From Escherichia coli (GTDB taxonomy: Bacteria; Pseudomonadota; Gammaproteobacteria; Enterobacterales; Enterobacteriaceae): a stretch of DNA of 64,000 nucleotides. Under the pieces are notes generated by a model. The model searched no databases. It saw nothing but the letters and a program-made list of their open reading frames with translations, and had not been told where the DNA came from. Of the stretch, positions 1 through 45,593 are shown one piece after another. How positions within the stretch are numbered: position 1 is the stretch's first letter; every line of letters starts with the position of its first letter. The stretch lies in assembly GCF_044324875.1 (NCBI RefSeq), contig NZ_CP172185.1; one strand, given 5' to 3'. Made by a program: the position numbers and the translations under genes.

Positions 1-77
1 TCTACGGTCTGTGAAGGAGGCTGCGCGTGTACGGTAAAACTTGCCAGGGCTGCTAAAAACAGAAGTATTATTTTCAT
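1..77 (-). CDS. yqhG: 5' end (about 25 codons) of a secreted protein gene that runs off the window; probable yqhG
   Basis: Reverse complement of 1..77 reads ATG AAA ATA ATA CTT CTG ... = MKIILLFLAALASFTVHAQPPSQTV, a Sec-type signal peptide, with a GGAGAGG Shine-Dalgarno about 8 nt upstream; position downstream of dkgA matches K-12 order. Too short for the ORF track. Confidence 0.4.
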   Translation of the reverse strand, partial: MKIILLFLAALASFTVHAQPPSQTV

Positions 78-276
78 CTGTTTTTCACCTCTCCGTTGCG
101 TTTATCCCGGGTGTAGATGAGTTGTTCCTTTAAGAGCTTCCGGCTCTGCATGATGATGTCCTTATATTTGGCATTCCTGAACAAGGAAGAGTAACAATGG
201 GCAGGACGCGAGGGGAATAAATGATTTCTGAAAAGTCCGGTAGCGGAACAATACCGCCACCGGGAGAATTTGCACG

Positions 277-1104
277 TTAGCCGCCAAACTGGTCAGGATC
301 GGGACCGAGACGCTTGCCCTGATCGAGTTTTGCAATTTCGCCGAGTTCGTCTTTGTCGAGACGGAAATCCCAGACATCAAAGTTTTCGACAATGCGTGAA
401 GGTGTGACCGATTTCGGGATCACCACCAGGCCGCTATCCAGATGCCAGCGGATAACAATCTGCGCCGGGGTTTTGCCGTATTTATCTGCCAGATCGCGAA
501 TGACTTTCTGATCGAAAACGCCTTTCCCTCCTTGCGCTAATGGGCTCCAGGATTCGGTCTGGATTTTGTGTGTCGCGTTCCAGGCATGTAGCTGGCGTTG
601 TTGCATCAGCGGGTGAAGTTCGATCTGATTAATAACAGGCGTCACGCCAGTTTCATCAATCAGGCGTTGCAGGTGATGGATCTGGAAGTTGCACACGCCG
701 ATGCTTTTGATTAATCCCTCTTTTTGCAATTCGATCATGCCTTTCCATGCTTCGACATAATGGTCGATAGCGGGAACGGGCCAGTGCATTAAGTAGAGGT
801 CGATATAATCAAGCTGGAGTTTTTTCAGGCTGTCGAGCAGGGCTTCGCGGGGGCGCTTGTGGTCGTCGTTCCACAGTTTAGTGGTGATGAACAGTTCTTC
901 TCTGTTGACTGAGGCATTTTTCAGGGCTTTGCCGACACCTTCTTCGTTCTTATAGGCCGCGGCGGTATCAATCGAGCGATAACCCACGTCTAACGCTTTT
1001 TGAATGGCGGTGATTACTTCCTCATTACTTGCTTGCCAGACGCCCAGTCCCAGCTGGGGCATGACATTGCCATCCTGTAGCTTAATAACGGTTGGATTAG
1101 CCAT
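277..1104 (-). CDS. dkgA: 2,5-diketo-D-gluconate reductase A / methylglyoxal reductase (aldo-keto reductase)
   Basis: 275-aa ORF starting MANPTVIKLQDGNVMPQLGLGVW; matches E. coli DkgA in length and sequence as I recall it. Confidence 0.93.
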   Translation of the reverse strand: MANPTVIKLQDGNVMPQLGLGVWQASNEEVITAIQKALDVGYRSIDTAAAYKNEEGVGKALKNASVNREELFITTKLWNDDHKRPREALLDSLKKLQLDYIDLYLMHWPVPAIDHYVEAWKGMIELQKEGLIKSIGVCNFQIHHLQRLIDETGVTPVINQIELHPLMQQRQLHAWNATHKIQTESWSPLAQGGKGVFDQKVIRDLADKYGKTPAQIVIRWHLDSGLVVIPKSVTPSRIVENFDVWDFRLDKDELGEIAKLDQGKRLGPDPDQFGG

Positions 1105-1208
1105 ACGTTCCTCCTTTATATGAACTCACCGGAGCAGGCTCCGGTGAGGTGTTGTGAACTTAAGTCTGGACGAAATGCCCGAAAACGAAAGTTTGAGGCG
1201 TAAAAAGC

Positions 1209-2372
1209 TTAGCGGGCGGCTTCGTATATACGGCGGCTGACATCCAGCGTAATGTCATGATTTTCGCCCAGTTGGGTCATGCCGTGCTCTTCCAGTTTTT
1301 TCAGCAAAGCCGGGATGGAGCTGCCGTCCAGACCGTAGTCGGAGAGGTGGGTAGGCACGCCTAATTGCTCAAAGAAATTGCGGGTTGCGGCAATCGCGGC
1401 GTCAATACGCTCATCGTCGGAACCTTCAGTGATGTTCCAGACGCGTTCAGCATATTGCAGCAGCTTAGCGCGCTTGGTATCGCGTTTTTCATTCCACAGT
1501 GCAGGCAGGACGATAGCCAGTGTTTGCGCGTGATCCAGACCGTGCATCGCAGTCAGTTCGTGGCCCAGCATATGCGTTGCCCAGTCCTGCGGTACGCCAG
1601 CGCCAATCAAACCGTTCAGCGCCTGCGTCGCCGCCCACATAACGTTGGCGCGCACATCGTAGTTTTCTGGCTCTTTCAGGGCTTTCGGACCATCTTCGAT
1701 CAGCGTCAACAAAATGCCTTCTGCGAAACGGTCCTGAATTTTGGCATCAACCGGTTTGGTAACATACTGTTCCACGGTGTGTACAAAGGCGTCCACTACA
1801 CCGTTAGCCACCTGACGCGGCGGCAGGGTGTAGGTATAAACCGGATCGAGCACGGCAAATACGGGCTGAACATGGGCAGAATGGAACGCCTGCTTGTCGC
1901 CTGTGGTTTTACGGGAGATCACCGCACCTGCGTTGGATTCTGAACCGGTTGCTGGCAGCGTCAGCACACAGCCCATCGGGATGGCGCTTTTAATCTCTTT
2001 ACCGCCCGTTTGCAGAATGTGCCACGGATCGATATTTTCCGGATAGTTAGCCGCTGCGGCGATAAATTTGGTGCCGTCCAGTACAGAACCGCCGCCAACT
2101 GCCAGCAGGAAAGTCACTTTTTGTTCGCGAACCAGTTTCACGGCGTTCATCAGCGTTTCATAAGCCGGGTTTGGCTCAATACCGCCAAATTCCAGCACGT
2201 CCATGCCTTTCAGGGCATCCAGAACTTGATCGAGAACGCCGGTTTTTTTCACGCTGCCGCCACCGTAGGTAATCAATACGCGAGCATCGTGAGGAATTTG
2301 TTCGCGTAAACCAGCGATTGCGCCTTTACCAAACAGAATGCGGGTTGGGGTGTGCAGATTAAAGTTGTTCAT
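1209..2372 (-). CDS. yqhD: NADPH-dependent aldehyde reductase (iron-containing alcohol dehydrogenase family)
   Basis: ORF 1209..2396; known N-terminus [17 protein letters not shown] begins 8 codons into the track ORF, giving 387 aa; forms the yqhD-dkgA pair. Confidence 0.93.
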
Positions 2373-2508
2373 TACTTGCTCCCTTTGCTGGGCCAATATG
2401 AGGGCAGAGAACGATCTGCCTGATGTTTTTCATTGTGATCGCCAGCGCCCTGGCTCTCAATGCTCATTTCTGCCAATGTCTTGCCTATTTCTCCAGAGTG
2501 CTGGAGAA

Positions 2509-3465
2509 ATGCTACAAAATTGCGCACAATCAAATTGCCGCATTATTCCTAAGAAATTACGCGATATGAAACGTGAAGAGATTTGCCGCTTGCTGGCGGA
2601 TAAAGTTAATAAACTGAAAAATAAAGAAAATAGTTTGTCAGAACTGTTGCCCGATGTGCGTTTGTTGTATGGCGAGACGCCTTTCGCACGTACACCGGTG
2701 ATGTACGAGCCTGGCATCATAATTCTCTTTTCCGGACATAAAATCGGTTATATCAATGAACGCGTGTTTCGTTATGATGCCAATGAATACCTGCTGCTGA
2801 CGGTGCCGTTGCCGTTTGAGTGCGAAACCTATGCCACGTCAGAGGTGCCGCTGGCAGGGTTGCGTCTCAATGTCGATATTTTGCAGTTACAGGAACTGTT
2901 GATGGACATTGGCGAAGATGAGCATTTCCAGCCGTCGATGGCAGCCAGCGGGATTAACTCCGCCACGTTATCAGAAGAGATTTTATGCGCGGCGGAGCGG
3001 TTACTCGACGTGATGGAGCGACCACTGGATGCGCGTATTCTCGGCAAACAGATCATCCGCGAAATTCTGTACTACGTGCTGACCGGACCTTGCGGCGGCG
3101 CGTTACTGGCGCTGGTCAGTCGCCAGACTCACTTCAGCCTGATTAGCCGCGTGCTGAAACGGATTGAGAATAAATACACCGAAAACCTGAGCGTCGAGCA
3201 ACTGGCGGCAGAAGCCAACATGAGCGTATCGGCGTTCCACCATAATTTTAAGTCTGTCACCAGCACCTCGCCGTTGCAGTATTTGAAGAATTACCGTCTG
3301 CATAAGGCGCGGATGATGATCATCCACGACGGCATGAAAGCCAGTGCGGCAGCGATGCGCGTCGGTTACGAAAGCGCATCGCAATTTAGCCGTGAGTTTA
3401 AACGTTACTTTGGTGTGACGCCGGGGGAAGATGCGGCAAGAATGCGGGCGATGCAGGGGAATTAA
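2509..3465 (+). CDS. yqhC: AraC/XylS-family transcriptional activator of yqhD-dkgA
   Basis: ORF 2338..3465; protein from [24 protein letters not shown] (codon 58 of the track ORF) gives 318 aa; C-terminal AraC-type HTH region; divergent from yqhD. Confidence 0.88.
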
Positions 3466-3504
3466 ATACGTTCCCGGTACAGCAACCGGGAACGGGGAAA
3501 ATCG

Positions 3505-4164
3505 TCAGGCGTTACAGTATTTTTTTTTAATCACCACAAACAGCGTGCCTAACAAGCCAGCGGTTAACAAGGCAATTGGCAGGATCATCAGGATCGTCAT
3601 TACCTGATCTTCATGGCGTTTAACGAACGGAATCATACTTAATGCATAGCCGAAACTGGTTACCACGCTGACCCACAGCAATCCACTTAACCAGTTGAAA
3701 AACTGGAAGCGGCGGTTTGGCAGACCGGAAATTCCCGCCATGGTTGGCAGCAACGTACGGACAAATGCAAGAAAACGTCCAGCCAGCAGCGCCAGCAGAC
3801 CGTGGCGGTCAAACATGCAGGTGGCGCGCTGGTGATATTTAGCGGGAAGCTGTGCCAGCCAGCCTTTCACCGTTTTGGTATTCCCTAACCAGCGCCCCTG
3901 AATATAACTTAACCAGCAGCCCAGACTTGCTGCGGCGGTCAGAATCGCAATCGTAGGCAGAAAATCCATAACCCCCTGGGCAATCAATGCGCCAGCCAAT
4001 ATCAACAAGCTGTCGCCTGGCAAAAATGAGGCGGGCAGCAGGCCGTTTTCTAAAAACAGCGTGGCAAACATGACAAAGTAAACAACGCTAACAATATGAG
4101 GATCCGCCAGCGCGGCAAAGTCGTGTTGCCAGAGCGCAGCGATGATATCTTGAATAACAGCCAT
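3505..4164 (-). CDS. yghB: DedA-family inner membrane protein
   Basis: 219-aa [26 protein letters not shown]..., multi-pass hydrophobic; matches YghB. Confidence 0.9.
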
Positions 4165-4303
4165 GGACTTTCCTGTGGAACAGCGTTTAAGCCTTTATCT
4201 GCCTATTGTACTCCTGAATCGTCCGGGACGCCTTGATCCCGGACGCAACAATTTAAGACTTTTCACAATAAAATGTCTGCAAAATTGTCCAAAAGTGGCA
4301 ATG

Positions 4304-5491
4304 TTATACAATTCGCGCAAAACCGGCGTCCAGATCGGCAATCAGATCGTCGACATCTTCCAGACCAATATGCAGGCGAATCAAGGTCCCGCTAAAATCG
4401 ATCTCGCCTTGCGGGCGAATGGCGGCGATATGTTCTGGTTGATTTGCCAGGATCAACGATTCATAACCGCCCCACGAGTAGGCCATGCTGAATAAACTGA
4501 AGTTATCCAGATAGTTCGCCAGCTCTTCATCATTGAGTTTTTTCTTAAGCACAAAGGAAAATAGCCCGCTGCTACCTGTAAAGTCTCGTTTCCAGAATTC
4601 GTGGCCTTTACTGCCAGGCAGAGCAGGGTGGTTAACTCGCGCTACTTGCGGATGTTCTGCCAGCCATTCAGCCACTTTCAGACTGCTTTCATGATGTTGA
4701 CGCAGGCGAACACCCAAAGTGCGCAGGCCACGGCTGGTTATATAGGCGGTATCGGCATCGACCATCTGGCCCATCAGATAGGCATTCTCCCGCAGCTGCT
4801 CCCAGCAACGGGCATTGCACACGGCAGTGCCAATCATCGCATCTGAATGCCCCACCAGATATTTGGTAGCGGCCTGAATGGAAACATCGATGCCAAAATC
4901 CAGCGCCTTAAACAGCACACCGGCCGCCCAGGTGTTATCGATCATAATGATGGCATCTGGCACCACATTGCGCACGGCGGCAACAATCGCCGGAACGTCG
5001 TGGACTTCCATGGTGATGGAGCCTGGGGATTCCAGAAACACGATTTTAGTGTTTGGCTGCACATGTTTAACGATATCTGCGCCAATCAGCGGATCAAACC
5101 ACGATGTCGTTACGCCCAGTTTGCTGAGGATTTTGCTACAGAAATCCTGACTCGGTTCATAGGCAGTGTTGGTCATTAACACATGATCGCCCTGTTCGAC
5201 AAAAGCAAGAATAGAATTAGCAACCGCCGCTGCCCCGCAGGGGAACAGCACGCAGCCTGCGCCACCTTCCAGTTCACACATCGCTTGTTGTAAGGAAAAA
5301 TGGGTTAACGTTCCGCGCCGCCCATAGAACAACTCGCCATTGGCGCGATTGCGTGTCGCGTGCTTTTTGGCTTCCACACTGTCAAAGACCAGCGAAGAAG
5401 CGCGCTGAATCACGCTATTTACCGCGCCGAGAGTGTATTTTTTGCTGCGTCCTGCATTCACCAGTTGAGTATCAAGCTTTTTGTCCGCCAT
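4304..5491 (-). CDS. metC: cystathionine beta-lyase (PLP-dependent)
   Basis: ORF 4304..5626; known N-terminus [20 protein letters not shown] is codon 46 of the track ORF, giving 395 aa. Confidence 0.93.
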
Positions 5492-5509
5492 GTCGGGATT
5501 CCTGTTTTT

Positions 5510-5525
5510 ATACGTCTGGATGTCT
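5510..5525. promoter_or_regulatory. candidate MetJ operator (tandem met-box-like octamers ATACGTCT GGATGTCT) just upstream of metC
   Basis: Two adjacent 8-mers resembling the AGACGTCT met box, 19-34 bp upstream of the metC ATG; metC is a MetJ regulon member. Confidence 0.3.
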
Positions 5526-5742
5526 AAACTAGCATGAATATTCTCGGGCGCATCCTGAAGAATTGGCATAAAGCAGAAAATTTTCGCAAATGGCGTGCTG
5601 GTGACTTTTTTACTGCGTAAACGCAAGGAAAAGAAAGCAAAGGTACGGCAGTATGCAAATAGTAATGAGAACGACTATCAATTCGACGTCGTTTTGATAT
5701 TATTATGCGCAGATTTTGTGACTTGCGTCCTGGAGATACACA

Positions 5743-6477
5743 GTGGGTAATAATTTAATGCAGACGGACCTTTCCGTCTGGGGTATGTATCAGCACGCCG
5801 ATATTGTCGTTAAGTGCGTGATGATTGGGCTTATTTTGGCCTCCGTAGTCACCTGGGCAATCTTCTTCAGTAAGAGCGTAGAGTTCTTCACTCAGAAGCG
5901 TCGCCTTAAGCGCGAGCAGCAACTGCTGGCTGAAGCGCGTTCCTTAAACCAGGCCAACGATATCGCCGCTGATTTTGGTAGCAAAAGCTTAAGCCTGCAT
6001 TTGCTCAATGAAGCGCAGAATGAGCTGGAACTGTCAGAAGGCAGCGACGATAACGAAGGTATTAAAGAACGTACCAGCTTCCGTCTGGAGCGTCGGGTCG
6101 CCGCAGTAGGTCGTCAAATGGGCCGCGGTAACGGTTATCTGGCAACCATCGGCGCGATTTCGCCGTTCGTTGGTCTGTTTGGTACGGTCTGGGGCATCAT
6201 GAACAGCTTTATTGGTATCGCGCAAACGCAGACCACTAACCTGGCAGTCGTTGCGCCGGGTATTGCAGAAGCTCTGTTAGCAACGGCAATCGGCCTCGTG
6301 GCAGCGATTCCGGCGGTCGTTATCTATAACGTATTTGCACGTCAGATTGGCGGCTTTAAAGCGATGCTGGGTGATGTCGCAGCGCAGGTATTGTTGCTGC
6401 AAAGCCGTGACCTGGATCTGGAAGCCAGCGCCGCTGCGCATCCGGTTCGTGTCGCACAAAAATTACGCGCAGGATAA
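5743..6477 (+). CDS. exbB: TonB-system energising protein ExbB
   Basis: 244-aa ORF MGNNLMQTDLSVWGMYQHADIVVKCVM..., GTG start as printed; matches ExbB. Confidence 0.95.
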   Translation: MGNNLMQTDLSVWGMYQHADIVVKCVMIGLILASVVTWAIFFSKSVEFFTQKRRLKREQQLLAEARSLNQANDIAADFGSKSLSLHLLNEAQNELELSEGSDDNEGIKERTSFRLERRVAAVGRQMGRGNGYLATIGAISPFVGLFGTVWGIMNSFIGIAQTQTTNLAVVAPGIAEALLATAIGLVAAIPAVVIYNVFARQIGGFKAMLGDVAAQVLLLQSRDLDLEASAAAHPVRVAQKLRAG

Positions 6478-40899: not shown

Positions 40900-43071
40900 A
40901 TGAGTCAAACCATAACCCAGGGCCGTTTACGCATTAACGCCAATTTTAAACGTTTTGTGGATGAAGAAGTTTTACCGGGAACAGGGTTGGACACTGCGGC
41001 GTTCTGGCGCAATTTTGATGAGATCGTTCACGATCTGGCACCAGAAAATCGTCAGTTGCTGGCAGAACGCGATCGCATTCAGGCGGCGCTTGATGAGTGG
41101 CATCGCAGCAATCCGGGGCCGGTTAAAGATAAAGAGGCCTATAAATCTTTCCTGCGTGAACTGGGCTACCTGGTGCCACAACCGGAGCGCGTGACGGTGG
41201 AAACCACGGGCATTGACAGCGAAATCACCAGCCAGGCGGGGCCACAGCTGGTGGTTCCGGCAATGAACGCCCGCTACGCGCTGAACGCGGCGAACGCTCG
41301 CTGGGGCTCACTGTACGATGCGTTATACGGCAGCGACATCATCCCGCAGGAAGGGGCGATGGTCAGCGGCTACGATCCGCAGCGCGGTGAGCAGGTTATC
41401 GCCTGGGTTCGGCGTTTCCTCGATGAATCACTACCGCTGGAAAACGGCAGCTATCAGGATGTGGTGGCGTTTAAGGTGGTTGATAAACAATTACGCATCC
41501 AGTTGAAAAATGGTAAAGAAACCACGTTACGCACCCCGGCGCAGTTTGTCGGTTACCGTGGCAATGCCGCTGCGCCGTCCTGCATTTTGCTGAAAAATAA
41601 CGGCCTGCATATTGAGCTGCAAATTGATGCCAACGGACGGATTGGCAAAGACGATCCGGCGCACATCAACGATGTTATCGTCGAAGCTGCCATCAGTACC
41701 ATTCTCGACTGCGAAGATTCGGTCGCGGCGGTTGATGCGGAAGATAAAATCCTGCTGTACCGCAATCTGCTGGGTCTGATGCAGGGAACTCTGCAAGAGA
41801 AAATGGAAAAAAACGGTCGGCAAATCGTGCGTAAACTGAATGACGATCGTCATTACACCGCCGCCGATGGCTCTGAAATTTCTCTGCACGGACGCTCGCT
41901 GCTGTTTATCCGCAACGTGGGTCATTTGATGACCATTCCTGTGATTTGGGACAGCGAAGGCAATGAAATCCCGGAAGGCATTCTTGATGGCGTCATGACT
42001 GGCGCGATTGCCCTCTATGATTTAAAAGTGCAGAAAAACTCGCGCACTGGCAGCGTCTATATTGTGAAACCGAAAATGCACGGTCCGCAGGAAGTGGCGT
42101 TCGCCAACAAACTGTTTACCCGCATTGAGACAATGCTCGGTATGGCACCGAATACCCTGAAAATGGGCATTATGGATGAAGAACGTCGGACCTCGCTGAA
42201 CTTGCGTAGCTGTATCGCTCAGGCGCGCAACCGCGTGGCGTTCATCAATACCGGTTTCCTCGACCGTACCGGCGATGAAATGCATTCGGTGATGGAAGCT
42301 GGCCCGATGCTGCGTAAAAACCAGATGAAATCGACGCCGTGGATCAAAGCCTACGAGCGTAATAACGTGCTTTCCGGTCTGTTCTGTGGGCTGCGCGGTA
42401 AAGCGCAAATTGGTAAAGGCATGTGGGCAATGCCGGACCTGATGGCAGACATGTACAGCCAGAAGGGCGACCAACTGCGTGCCGGGGCAAACACAGCCTG
42501 GGTTCCGTCACCAACCGCTGCTACGCTCCATGCGCTGCACTACCACCAAACCAACGTACAGAGCGTGCAGGCCAACATTGCCCAGAGCGAGTTCAATGCT
42601 GAATTTGAACCGTTGCTGGACGATCTGCTGACTATTCCGGTGGCTGAAAACGCTAACTGGTCGGTGGAAGAGATCCAACAAGAGCTGGATAACAACGTGC
42701 AGGGGATTCTGGGGTACGTGGTGCGTTGGGTGGAGCAGGGGATTGGTTGTTCAAAAGTGCCGGATATTCACAACGTGGCGCTGATGGAAGACCGCGCAAC
42801 GCTGCGTATCTCCAGCCAGCATATCGCCAACTGGTTATGTCACGGTATTCTGACCAAAGAACAGGTGCAGGCGTCGCTGGAGAATATGGCGAAAGTGGTT
42901 GATCAGCAAAACGCTGGCGATCCGGCTTATCGTCCGATGGCGGGGAATTTCGCTAACTCGTGTGCTTTTAAAGCTGCCAGCGATTTAATCTTCCTCGGCG
43001 TGAAACAGCCAAACGGCTATACCGAACCGTTATTACACGCCTGGCGTTTACGCGAAAAAGAAAGTCATTAA
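40900..43071 (+). CDS. glcB: malate synthase G
   Basis: 723-aa [34 protein letters not shown]... Confidence 0.95.
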
Positions 43072-43084
43072 TAGCGTCAAAAAA

Positions 43085-43110
43085 GCCCCGGCAAGTTTTA
43101 TTGTCGGGGC
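43085..43110. terminator. hairpin immediately after glcB (possible attenuator/processing site)
   Basis: GCCCCGGCAA gtttta TTGTCGGGGC, 10-bp stem with one mismatch; no strong U-tract. Confidence 0.35.
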
Positions 43111-43425
43111 TATGATAGTAACTGCGGTAGTACATTTATCCCGGAAATAACCGGAGCGATTATCAGGGTTTAACAATATTAAATACCCGTAGCGCATTAC
43201 TAGCGGGCCTAAAACAACAATATGGACATCTTAACGATATTCTGCGCCTGCGTGTGCGGAACAGAAACACTTACCCGATATACTTGTTATGCCAGAGGTA
43301 GCAATTGCGTTAGCAGCGTACTGTTGCTGTAAAGTATAACGCCTATATTTTACAGTTCAGTCCTCTTTTGCTTATTACAACCTTAAGTATATCAAGCATA
43401 TAAAGATAATAAGAGACTGAACAAT

Positions 43426-45108
43426 ATGGTTACCTGGACCCAAATGTATATGCCGATGGGAGGACTGGGGCTATCCGCTCTGGTCGCCCTGATCCCGATA
43501 ATATTCTTCTTCGTTGCACTCGCGGTATTACGTCTGAAAGGACATGTCGCCGGAGCAATAACCCTTATATTATCTATCCTGATTGCAATATTCGCCTTTA
43601 AAATGCCGATTGATATGGCATTTGCTGCTGCGGGCTATGGCTTTATTTATGGATTATGGCCTATTGCGTGGATTATTGTTGCGGCGGTGTTCCTCTATAA
43701 ATTAACCGTTGCCAGCGGTCAGTTCGATATTATCCGCAGCTCGGTTATCTCCATCACTGACGATCAGCGTTTGCAGGTGTTACTGATTGGTTTCTCCTTT
43801 GGCGCGCTGCTGGAAGGGGCGGCTGGCTTTGGTGCGCCGGTGGCGATTACCGGTGCGCTGCTGGTGGGCCTGGGCTTCAAACCGTTATACGCGGCGGGGC
43901 TGTGTCTGATTGCCAATACTGCGCCGGTGGCGTTTGGTGCGTTGGGCGTGCCGATTCTGGTCGCCGGTCAGGTAACGGGAATCGATCCGTTCCACATTGG
44001 CGCAATGGCGGGACGTCAGTTACCGTTCCTGTCGGTTCTTGTGCCGTTCTGGCTGGTAGCAATGATGGACGGCTGGAAAGGGGTGAAAGAGACGTGGCCA
44101 GCGGCGCTGGTTGCTGGGGGAAGCTTCGCTGTCACGCAGTTCTTTACCTCTAACTATATTGGTCCGGAACTGCCGGATATTACTTCGGCGCTGGTGAGTA
44201 TCGTCTCACTCGCTTTATTCCTTAAAGTCTGGCGGCCGAAAAATACCGAAACGGCAATCAGCATGGGACAATCCGCAGGTGCGATGGTGGTGAATAAACC
44301 ATCTTCTGGCGGTCCCGTGCCTTCAGAATATAGTCTGGGGCAAATCATTCGTGCGTGGTCACCGTTTTTAATCTTAACGGTGCTGGTCACCATCTGGACG
44401 ATGAAGCCATTTAAAGCGTTATTTGCTCCGGGCGGCGCGTTTTATTCGCTGGTGATTAATTTCCAGATCCCTCATTTGCATCAACAAGTGTTGAAAGCGG
44501 CACCCATTGTCGCCCAGCCAACGCCAATGGATGCGGTATTTAAATTCGACCCTCTCTCTGCTGGCGGCACCGCTATTTTTATTGCAGCGATTATCTCTAT
44601 CTTCATCCTCGGCGTGGGGATCAAGAAAGGTATTGGCGTCTTTGCCGAAACGCTAATTAGCCTGAAGTGGCCGATACTGTCGATTGGCATGGTGCTGGCG
44701 TTCGCCTTCGTCACCAACTATTCCGGTATGTCCACCACGCTGGCGCTGGTACTGGCAGGTACAGGCGTGATGTTCCCGTTCTTTTCGCCATTCCTCGGCT
44801 GGCTGGGGGTATTCCTTACCGGCTCGGACACTTCCTCTAACGCCCTGTTTGGTTCACTGCAATCGACCACGGCGCAGCAAATCAACGTCTCCGACACCCT
44901 GCTGGTGGCAGCAAATACCAGCGGCGGCGTAACTGGCAAGATGATCTCCCCGCAATCTATCGCCGTGGCCTGCGCCGCGACGGGCATGGTGGGCCGAGAA
45001 TCTGAACTGTTCCGCTACACCGTGAAGCACAGTCTGATTTTTGCCAGCGTTATCGGCATTATCACGCTGTTGCAGGCGTATGTGTTTACCGGGATGTTAG
45101 TTTCGTAA
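43426..45108 (+). CDS. glcA: glycolate/lactate permease (LctP family)
   Basis: 560-aa polytopic [25 protein letters not shown]... Confidence 0.9.
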
Positions 45109-45117
45109 GTCAATAAT

Positions 45118-45144
45118 GCCGGATGATCGTTAATATCATCCGGC
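45118..45144. terminator. hairpin after glcA (end of glc operon)
   Basis: GCCGGATGAT cgttaat ATCATCCGGC, perfect 10-bp stem. Confidence 0.45.
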
Positions 45145-45593
45145 TACATTTACATTATTCTGTCTTATTAATTGAAAATTATTTCCCTCTTTATTATCCA
45201 TGCAGCAATAATGTTTTGCGTTCAGATAACCTGCTAAATAATTAAGAACGTGAGAATATCTATTTTTTTTATCACGCAAAACAAGTTTGTACTAATTATG
45301 TTCGCTTGATGAGCAAACACCGTGCTATCTGTTGCTTTTGCAATCGCAATCGTTAAAACTATCAACAACTTGGGATAGTTACATTGTGAATAATTGTTAC
45401 TTTTTTGTTTGTTGAATCTTTTTATAAATACCCCGTCTGACATCGAATAGGGGATATTCTTATAAATTTCACCTGTTTCGTTATCAATAATGCAGTTTTT
45501 TAAGAATGGAGGAAGTTATTAGAGAAGATAAAGCATAAAACTATTTCTCCCAGTTACGAATTTTTTAACATTGTTTTGTCACTTGCGTTATTA

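Follow-up and report, generated by a model that had tools for sequence, protein, structure and literature searches.

The DNA analysed is a stretch of 64,000 nucleotides from Escherichia coli, called the window here, and the locus of interest within it is the junction between two genes of the glc operon. The ORF list places glcB at 40900..43071 and glcA at 43426..45108, both on the + strand, which leaves a gap of exactly 354 bp at 43072..43425. The gene names come from RefSeq E. coli genomes that are 99.9% identical, where the products are malate synthase G (glcB) and the glycolate permease GlcA. The annotation of these genomes has no feature within the glcB-glcA gap, and K-12 (NC_000913.3) has none there either, C0719 and small proteins included. 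According to Nunez et al. in 2001, glcA is reportedly the sixth gene of glcDEFGBA. The operon carries this name in the literature (PMC10272880), and RNA-seq shows co-regulation of glcA with glcB, G, F, and E (PMC10507321). The other junctions of the operon in strain 118UI are one overlap followed by spacings of 10, 4, and 21 bp. Since none of these exceeds 21 bp, the glcB-glcA junction is out of scale for the operon, and the earlier note was right to call the gap unusually long. The GC content of the gap is 0.40 compared to 0.53 in the flanking genes. Its sequence is present in 4543 of 5426 complete E. coli genomes, with a median of one and a maximum of two copies per genome, and in some strains IS-mediated breakpoints lie within it. 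A repeat or mobile element as the identity of the gap was ruled out because the sequence is single-copy. The features of the gap and the spacers found in other lineages are given in Table 1.

Table 1. Features at the glcB-glcA junction of the window and lengths of the corresponding spacers in other lineages
Feature	Position in the window, or length	Strand	Basis
glcB stop TAA (43069-43071) followed by an in-frame TAG	43069..43074	+	Sequence reading, ORF end
A6 run directly 5' of the stem (+), which is a U6 tract directly 3' of the stem (-)	43079..43084		Sequence reading
GC-rich stem-loop, 11 pairs including one G.U, 6-nt loop	43084..43111	+	Inverted-repeat search, folding
Mapped RNA 3' end	43115..43115	+	Term-seq K-12 3121590, converted; printed flanking sequence agrees
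C0719 RNA, Rfam RF00117, 222-nt candidate sRNA	43126..43347	-	Full-length covariance-model match
Conserved block, Escherichia to Raoultella and Citrobacter	43222..43275	+	Alignments
Almost invariant glcA leader of ~150 nt	43272..43425	+	~2 substitutions compared to E. albertii
AU-rich hairpin CUGUAAAGUAUA / UAUAUUUUACAG, 12 pairs, one G.U	43327..43355	+	Inverted repeat, + sense centroid
Predicted helix of GUUCAGUC(C)UCUU (43354-43366) with AAGAGACUGAAC (43411-43422)	43354..43422	+	MFE and centroid structures
glcA translation initiation region GATAATAAGAGACTGAACAATATG	43405..43428	+	Alignments
glcB-glcA spacer, Klebsiella/Raoultella	397-401 bp
glcB-glcA spacer, Citrobacter	415 bp
glcB-glcA spacer, P. 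veronii-type loci	315-331 bp
Spacer before glcA, other Pseudomonas and Azotobacter	117-488 bp

The gap had been described as 354 bp of non-coding sequence and this holds, because its ends match those of the two reading frames exactly and no ORF in it is conserved. The + strand candidate for a small protein, at 43222..43332 (36 codons), was rejected on a hand count of 3 synonymous and 4 non-synonymous changes within Escherichia; this reading frame is shortened to 12 codons in Raoultella and its ATG is lost in Citrobacter. Two - strand candidates, one of 35 amino acids at 43163..43270 and one of 83 amino acids in Raoultella that has a good Shine-Dalgarno sequence, were rejected because neither is conserved between lineages.

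The stem-loop that follows glcB starts 12 nt past the glcB TAA and its arms are 43084-43094 (AGCCCCGGCAA) and 43101-43111 (TTGTCGGGGCT). Folded as a + sense RNA it has a free energy of -21.5 kcal/mol with a z-score of -6.2, and 0 of 200 shuffled sequences were as stable. Thus, the GC-rich stem-loop reported earlier right after the glcB stop is real and is far beyond what chance would give. On the + strand the sequence 3' of the stem is AUGAUAGUAAC, and when it is read from the last G-C pair it is UAUGAUAG, with 3 U in 8. A U-rich tract directly 3' of the stem is absent on the glc-sense strand, and the consensus terminator scan reported no intrinsic terminator on this strand. As the + strand offers no U-tract, this stem is not canonical and would make a poor intrinsic terminator for the glc transcript. 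On the - strand, GCCCCG...CGGGGC is followed by UUUUUUGA, and this combination of a stem and a U-tract is that of a canonical intrinsic terminator. The - sense stem contains one A x C mismatch and folds at -15.2 kcal/mol (z = -5.0); the terminator scan missed it because of its limits on loops and mismatches. From their sequence, the hairpin and the A-run would be expected to terminate any antisense transcription that comes from the spacer.

An RNA 3' end has been mapped at this stem-loop. In the Term-seq data of Adams et al. 2021 it is at K-12 position 3121590 on the '-' strand, thus in the sense of the glc genes, with an average count of 47630 (PMC7815308), and it was obtained in LB at OD600 2.0 (PMC7815308, Supplementary file 1, sheet LB 2.0). 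K-12 positions were converted by subtraction, the window position being 3164705 minus the K-12 position. In that study the end is classed as 'antisense' to C0719 and as 'primary' for glcB, a term used there for ends that follow a gene on its own strand by no more than 50 bp (PMC7815308). The end lies 4 nt beyond the last paired base of the stem. RNAs that carry glcB thus have a discrete 3' end at the stem-loop in vivo and, since an RNA end is observed there, the hairpin works on the glc transcript. The earlier note would have been refuted by read-through coverage of the gap without discrete transcript ends, but the published Term-seq data contain such an end in the glc sense; of the four roles which that note offered for the gap, an attenuator or RNA processing site is the best supported by this glcB-sense end so close to the stem. 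No other 3' end is found in the gap on either strand in the three Term-seq conditions, and, for the exponential cells used, in which glc was not induced, the gap contains no listed region of Rho termination (PMC7815308). The supplements of SMRT-Cappable-seq and Cappable-seq have no entry for the glcB-glcA interval. As it stands, the position of the end is compatible with termination and with trimming alike, and a genuine terminator of partial efficiency would explain it just as well.

The strand on which the hairpin acts was also addressed by comparison. In E. coli the + sense hairpin is more stable than its - sense counterpart by the energies given above, and the same asymmetry is seen in E. 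albertii (-19.1 vs -15.2 kcal/mol), Citrobacter (-25.9 vs -16.8 kcal/mol), and Raoultella (-20.1 vs -18.5 kcal/mol). In the P. veronii-type loci it is reversed, with -11.4 kcal/mol in the + sense and -17.0 kcal/mol in the - sense. When eight enteric sequences were aligned, every pair of the hairpin was kept in the + sense, with G.U and U.G wobbles at differing positions, whereas the same alignment read in the - sense had 6 broken cells. These comparative data lean towards the + strand as the one on which the hairpin has been maintained in enteric bacteria. The A-run next to the stem is retained in Escherichia, Citrobacter, and Raoultella; the P. veronii-type loci lack it or have it elsewhere. 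A conserved A-run in this place is what an intrinsic terminator on the - strand needs, and it counts against the + strand reading.

The gap has changed little in evolution. Its divergence is 5.4% from E. albertii and 1.1% from K-12, compared to 28% and 5.0% at 4-fold sites of glcB, 32% and 8.6% at 4-fold sites of glcA, and 23.5% and 8.6% in the glcA-sslE intergenic region. The gap has thus diverged about 5 times less than 4-fold sites and 4 to 8 times less than the neighbouring intergenic region. Its substitutions cluster in the first 150 nt; the coding flanks have 4-15 differences per 100 nt from E. albertii, and the conserved zone stops sharply at the glcA start codon. Recent recombination was rejected as the cause of the low divergence: since both coding flanks diverge normally and there is a sharp step at the glcA start, selective constraint and not a recombination patch accounts for it. 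The pattern of substitutions argues for strong purifying selection on the gap. For 43272-43425, conservation would also fit the promoter and the 5' end of a real - strand RNA.

Close homologues of GlcA have a patchy distribution. They were found in Escherichia, in a few Klebsiella/Raoultella, in one Citrobacter, and then in Pseudomonas and Azotobacter, and in every lineage found a long spacer of 117-488 bp precedes glcA. What is kept among Escherichia, Citrobacter, and Raoultella is the hairpin with its A-run, the block 43222-43275, and about 45 nt before the glcA ATG. Inside the block there is a further hairpin at 43241-43260 (+ strand; UCUGCGC / GUGCGGA; RNAalifold columns 294-313) with two wobble pairs, which would be mismatches in the - sense. 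A metagenome scan with the motif of the glcA start region yielded just three further loci, all of the P. veronii type. It is conceivable from the patchy distribution of GlcA that the spacer is inert, being either the leftover junction of a horizontal acquisition of glcA or a decayed gene; the foreign GC content of the P. veronii-type glc module (0.48-0.50), the AT-richness of the gap, and the IS-mediated breakpoints would go along with such an origin. We regard this as very improbable. An inert sequence would hardly diverge so much less than the adjacent intergenic region and the 4-fold sites, with a sharp boundary at glcA, and it is because of these conservation data that the proposal is strongly disfavoured; in addition, a mapped RNA end lies at the hairpin, and the lineages have no ORF in common there.

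The long spacers and the mapped end can also be read in another way, namely, that the hairpin is the true terminator of glcDEFGB and that glcA is a separate unit with its own sigma-S- or activator-dependent promoter in the conserved 150-200 nt. The discrete glcB 3' end is what such a terminator would produce, and the conserved zone sits where a promoter and operators would be. Long spacers before glcA are universal among the lineages found and, in several Pseudomonas loci, glcG is followed by the terminator-like GCGGGGCTTTTTC, a spacer of about 290 bp, and then glcA, which suggests an independent unit there. However, the + strand stem has no U-tract, and the promoter that this proposal needs was not seen. 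The consensus scan found no sigma-70-like promoter in the gap on either strand, and the best scores of the PWM scan, 7.3 on the + strand and 8.0 on the - strand, do not reach the 9.1 that shuffled sequence gave as its median best; these scans cover sigma-70-type consensus promoters only and would miss an activator- or sigma-S-dependent one. Within that scope the separate glcA promoter suggested in the earlier note is without sequence support. A GlcC operator in the gap was rejected because the words in common between the gap and the glcC-glcD control region are at chance level. The co-regulation of glcA with glcBGFE and the operon structure given in the literature also speak against a separate unit, and altogether we consider it unlikely.

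The opposite strand of the gap has a history of its own. C0719 is said to have been first reported by Tjaden et al. in 2002 from oligonucleotide-array transcript mapping. In a search of all Rfam families, the sole significant match was that to RF00117, with 294.5 bits against a gathering score of 50, E = 4.8e-78, and model positions 1-222 of 222 covered; on the + strand, Rfam families including riboswitch and leader models gave chance-level matches only, with E of at least 1.9 and scores under the gathering scores. The coordinates of C0719 in K-12, U00096.2 3119380-3119601 on the + strand (Rau et al. 2015; PMC4676190), convert to 43126-43347 of the window, the glc genes being on the - strand of K-12. 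The suggestion in the earlier note that C0719 had been predicted between glcB and glcA is thus borne out by the family match, but its antisense orientation had been missed. Lying antisense to both genes, C0719 cannot simply be a portion of the glc mRNA. The locus agrees with the RF00117 family, which is found in E. coli and Shigella, in sequence, in the flanking genes (glcB and glcA = yghK), and in antisense orientation. No difference in sequence sets it apart; what differs is that the structural and evolutionary signals described here favour the other strand. Annotation derived from EcoCyc retains C0719 as gene G0-8912 (PMC7815308). It is among the variably present sRNAs and has been lost in phylogroup E and some Shigella (PMC3318445).

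If C0719 is a genuine - strand sRNA, it would start at about 43347 or upstream and run toward glcB, ending at the U-tract of the hairpin. Such an RNA would have its 3' end near 43078 and a length of about 270 nt instead of 222 nt; a cis effect on the glcA leader and a trans-acting role would both be conceivable, and the conservation of the gap would reflect its promoter and body. Several observations are in its favor besides the full-length match to RF00117 on that strand: the - strand stem is followed by U6, and the A-run that encodes it is conserved in three genera; the most conserved zone, 43272-43425, takes in the C0719 5' end together with its upstream sequence; and strand-specific RNA-seq detected C0719, with a 3.5- to 7.4-fold increase in transition and stationary phase (PMC4676190). 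A mariner insertion at the C0719 site lowered group II intron retrohoming by a route that was left unexplained (PMC3636086). The RNA-seq counts are, however, very low (PMC4676190), and since they rise only when sense glc transcription is induced, leakage from the sense strand is possible. The three Term-seq conditions gave no C0719-sense 3' end (K-12 + strand, 31212xx-31216xx), which is a weak negative because expression may be too low (PMC7815308). No promoter-like site above background is present upstream of 43347, and when C0719 was extended to the terminator its fold was no better than shuffles (z = -0.64). The wobbles in the stem-loop after glcB and in the 43241-43260 helix are mismatches in the - sense, and Raoultella and Citrobacter either lack the 5' third of C0719 or have sequence there that cannot be aligned. 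A screen for effects on biofilm and motility saw no phenotype when C0719 was over-expressed (PMC4606813). The Hfq CLASH supplements contain no chimeras of C0719, and no interactions of glcA, among the entries listed; C0719 is also unannotated in K-12 RefSeq. Hence the small RNA that the earlier note offered as one option survives as an array and RNA-seq candidate of low expression, but a 3' end, a promoter, or folding in excess of shuffles was not found for it, and we doubt that a functional - strand sRNA is made from the gap.

Structure signals favour the glc-sense strand for the gap as a whole. Consensus folding of eight enteric gaps gave -35.05 kcal/mol in the + sense compared to -18.19 kcal/mol in the - sense. 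The z-score of the whole gap was -3.37 (+) vs -1.89 (-), and that of the conserved 225 nt was -2.02 (+) vs -0.41 (-), the last of these values being, like that of the extended C0719, in the range of shuffled sequence. Toward glcA the fold of 43321-43440 had a z-score of -2.8. In the predicted helix at 43354..43422 the arm AAGAGACUGAAC spans AAGAGA, the Shine-Dalgarno-like sequence of glcA, and within this helix 43355-43362 and 43415-43422 form a perfect 8-bp inverted repeat. The sequence ATAAT(A/T)AGAGA before the glcA start is conserved in every lineage found with the glcB-gap-glcA arrangement, the P. veronii type included, and the RBS-pairing helix 43355-62 / 43415-22 is confined to Escherichia. 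Raoultella, Citrobacter, and the P. veronii-type loci have a different helix that encloses the start, in which CCAGGUA...UACCUGG is replaced by CCAUGU...ACAUGG. Of the cells of this start-enclosing helix 91.8% are paired, compared to 11-37% when one arm is slid, and it has one compensatory pair; in E. coli it is weakened by 2 mismatches. A 9-bp perfect inverted repeat, 43277-85 / 43385-93, was rejected because two of its positions, 43387-88, are substituted in other Escherichia with no compensating change in the opposite arm. What the lineages would share is a glcA start site enclosed in structure; the evidence for this, covariation included, is modest because there are very few independent lineages.

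The reading that we prefer, and to which we give about even chances of being correct, is that the gap is an intercistronic region of glcDEFGBA that functions mainly in the glc sense, with the stem-loop fixing a stable 3' end for glcDEFGB and a structured leader holding back glcA translation. RNAs initiated at the glcD promoter would continue through glcB, and a large share of them would gain a stable 3' end at the stem-loop. This end would arise when 3'-to-5' exonucleases degrade transcripts that have stopped, or been cleaved, within the untranslated spacer until they reach the foot of the stem, or alternatively by weak hairpin-dependent termination. Trimming is judged the more probable origin because the U-tract is missing on the glc strand. 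Exonuclease trimming of the 3' ends of Rho-terminated RNAs is described by Adams et al., citing Dar and Sorek 2018 (PMC7815308). The glcDEFGB segment would in this way have a protected 3' end, while glcA would be carried by read-through molecules only. The remaining ~310 nt would then serve as the leader of glcA, in whose last ~150 nt the glcA RBS is predicted to be base-paired, and this would limit or gate translation. The expected outcome is that, from one promoter, the permease is made at a lower level than the enzymes. As part of this best explanation, 'C0719' would be the database name for a low-level signal from the opposite strand of the same conserved sequence. A genuine C0719 sRNA and a separate glcA unit are both compatible with this intercistronic reading and do not exclude it.

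The arrangement can be compared with three kinds of known systems. The REP hairpins of malE-malF, as Newbury et al. are said to have described in 1987, give intercistronic protection from 3' exonucleases and unequal expression within an operon. Like stabilisers of the malE-malF type, the glcB hairpin is located just past the upstream cistron and the downstream gene encodes a membrane transporter; it is also stabiliser-like in that the 3' end is at the base of the stem, no U-tract follows, and a long untranslated spacer comes next. It differs from the malE-malF REP in being single-copy, and since the gap sequence is single-copy the glcB hairpin is not a REP/BIME element. Bidirectional intrinsic terminators, in which a hairpin lies between an A-tract and a U-tract, were reportedly described by Ju et al. 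in 2019. The glcB hairpin is like these in its GC-rich stem and in the A6 run on one side, so that it is a terminator with a U-tract on the - strand and a hairpin on the + strand. It is unlike them in that no U-tract follows on the + side (UAUGAUAG), the two neighbouring genes point the same way and do not converge, and at this hairpin only the + strand 3' end is observed. Leaders that sequester an RBS are resembled in that a segment containing CCUCUU is predicted to pair with the glcA Shine-Dalgarno sequence and in that a start-enclosing helix is conserved elsewhere, but here there is no + strand Rfam family and the form of the helix varies across lineages.

The glc operon with its spacer of ~350 bp, the Rfam family of C0719, and the glcB 3' end in a Term-seq table are already on record. 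What is added here is how these are related in strand, the absence of promoters and ORFs, a quantified conservation, and a structural tilt to the glc-sense strand. The spacer could explain how one operon makes far less permease than soluble enzymes. The annotation of C0719 and glc would gain from recording that C0719 is antisense, that a glc-sense 3' end is published, and that conservation is well above that of neutral sites and goes with structure signals in the glc sense; practical value is limited. A stronger proposal is that 43222-43425 is an undescribed cis-regulatory leader in the glc sense that gates translation of glcA or read-through into it, in which case C0719 would be a by-product or mis-stranded. 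We consider this improbable. Were the leader a true regulatory RNA, it would be one more case of post-transcriptional tuning in a catabolic operon and no new principle. Candidate inputs to such a putative glcA leader are a metabolite, Hfq, an sRNA, and growth phase.

The glc module of Pseudomonas and the Enterobacteriaceae looks like a horizontally mobile unit that is common to both. The glc loci of the Pseudomonas veronii/migulae type, which have a GC content of 48-50%, carry the gene order glcG-glcB-(324-331 bp spacer)-glcA-malic enzyme, and the order glcA-malic enzyme recurs in Klebsiella/Raoultella, with 72% identity for the malic enzyme. These loci and the enterics also have in common the motif ATAATTAGAGA before glcA. 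In all lineages an A-rich, AAnAAnAA-like motif precedes or overlaps the ribosome-binding region of glcA, its form being AACAACAA or AACAAUAA in Pseudomonas and AAUAAUUA or AAUAAGAG in the enterics. We take this motif to resemble the Hfq/Crc catabolite-repression motif of Pseudomonas.

Coordinates of the features in the window and in the comparison loci (L-numbers)
Feature	Sequence	Positions	Remark
Tandem stops of glcB	window	43069-43074	
AAnAAnAA-like motif	window	43405-43416	glcA ribosome-binding region
AAnAAnAA-like motif	L011, L014, L015, L017, L019, L020, L022, L023, L047	~2975-2995	
glcA-sslE intergenic region	window	45109-45575	467 bp
P. veronii/migulae-type loci	L009, L010, L086, L090-L094, L125, L191, L203	~1-6000	
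PEC408	L083	3001-3200	starts at window 43072 equivalent
2013C-3277	L084	3001-3473	starts at window 43072 equivalent
Citrobacter freundii insertion and hairpin	L085	2815-2847	

The glcB-glcA gap diverges much more slowly than the glcA-sslE intergenic region, which differs by 8.6% from K-12 and by 23.5% from E. albertii; downstream of glcA, the sequence or genes are different in E. albertii and in one clade of Escherichia (L004). In C. freundii there is a 23-nt insertion within the block of the gap that is conserved in Escherichia, Raoultella and Citrobacter. This insertion creates a terminator-like hairpin on the plus strand, AGCCTG-GTTCAT-CAGGCT followed by TTTTAATTT, which Escherichia and Raoultella lack.

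When window positions 42800-43700 were compared with 5426 complete E. coli genomes, 882 had no match to the 3' end of glcB, the gap or the 5' end of glcA. This fits a published report (PMC3318445) that C0719, the candidate sRNA in the gap, has been lost from phylogroup E and from some Shigella. A rearrangement breakpoint lies inside the gap in some strains of E. coli, among them PEC408 and 2013C-3277, and in neither of these two is glcA found beside glcB. In PEC408 the gap is cut to its first 47 nt, namely the hairpin, beyond which lie an ISKpn26 transposase and a Zorya system; in 2013C-3277 it breaks off at 238 nt, with a traT fragment and cptA beyond. The glcB gene itself is closed by tandem in-frame stops, TAA TAG.
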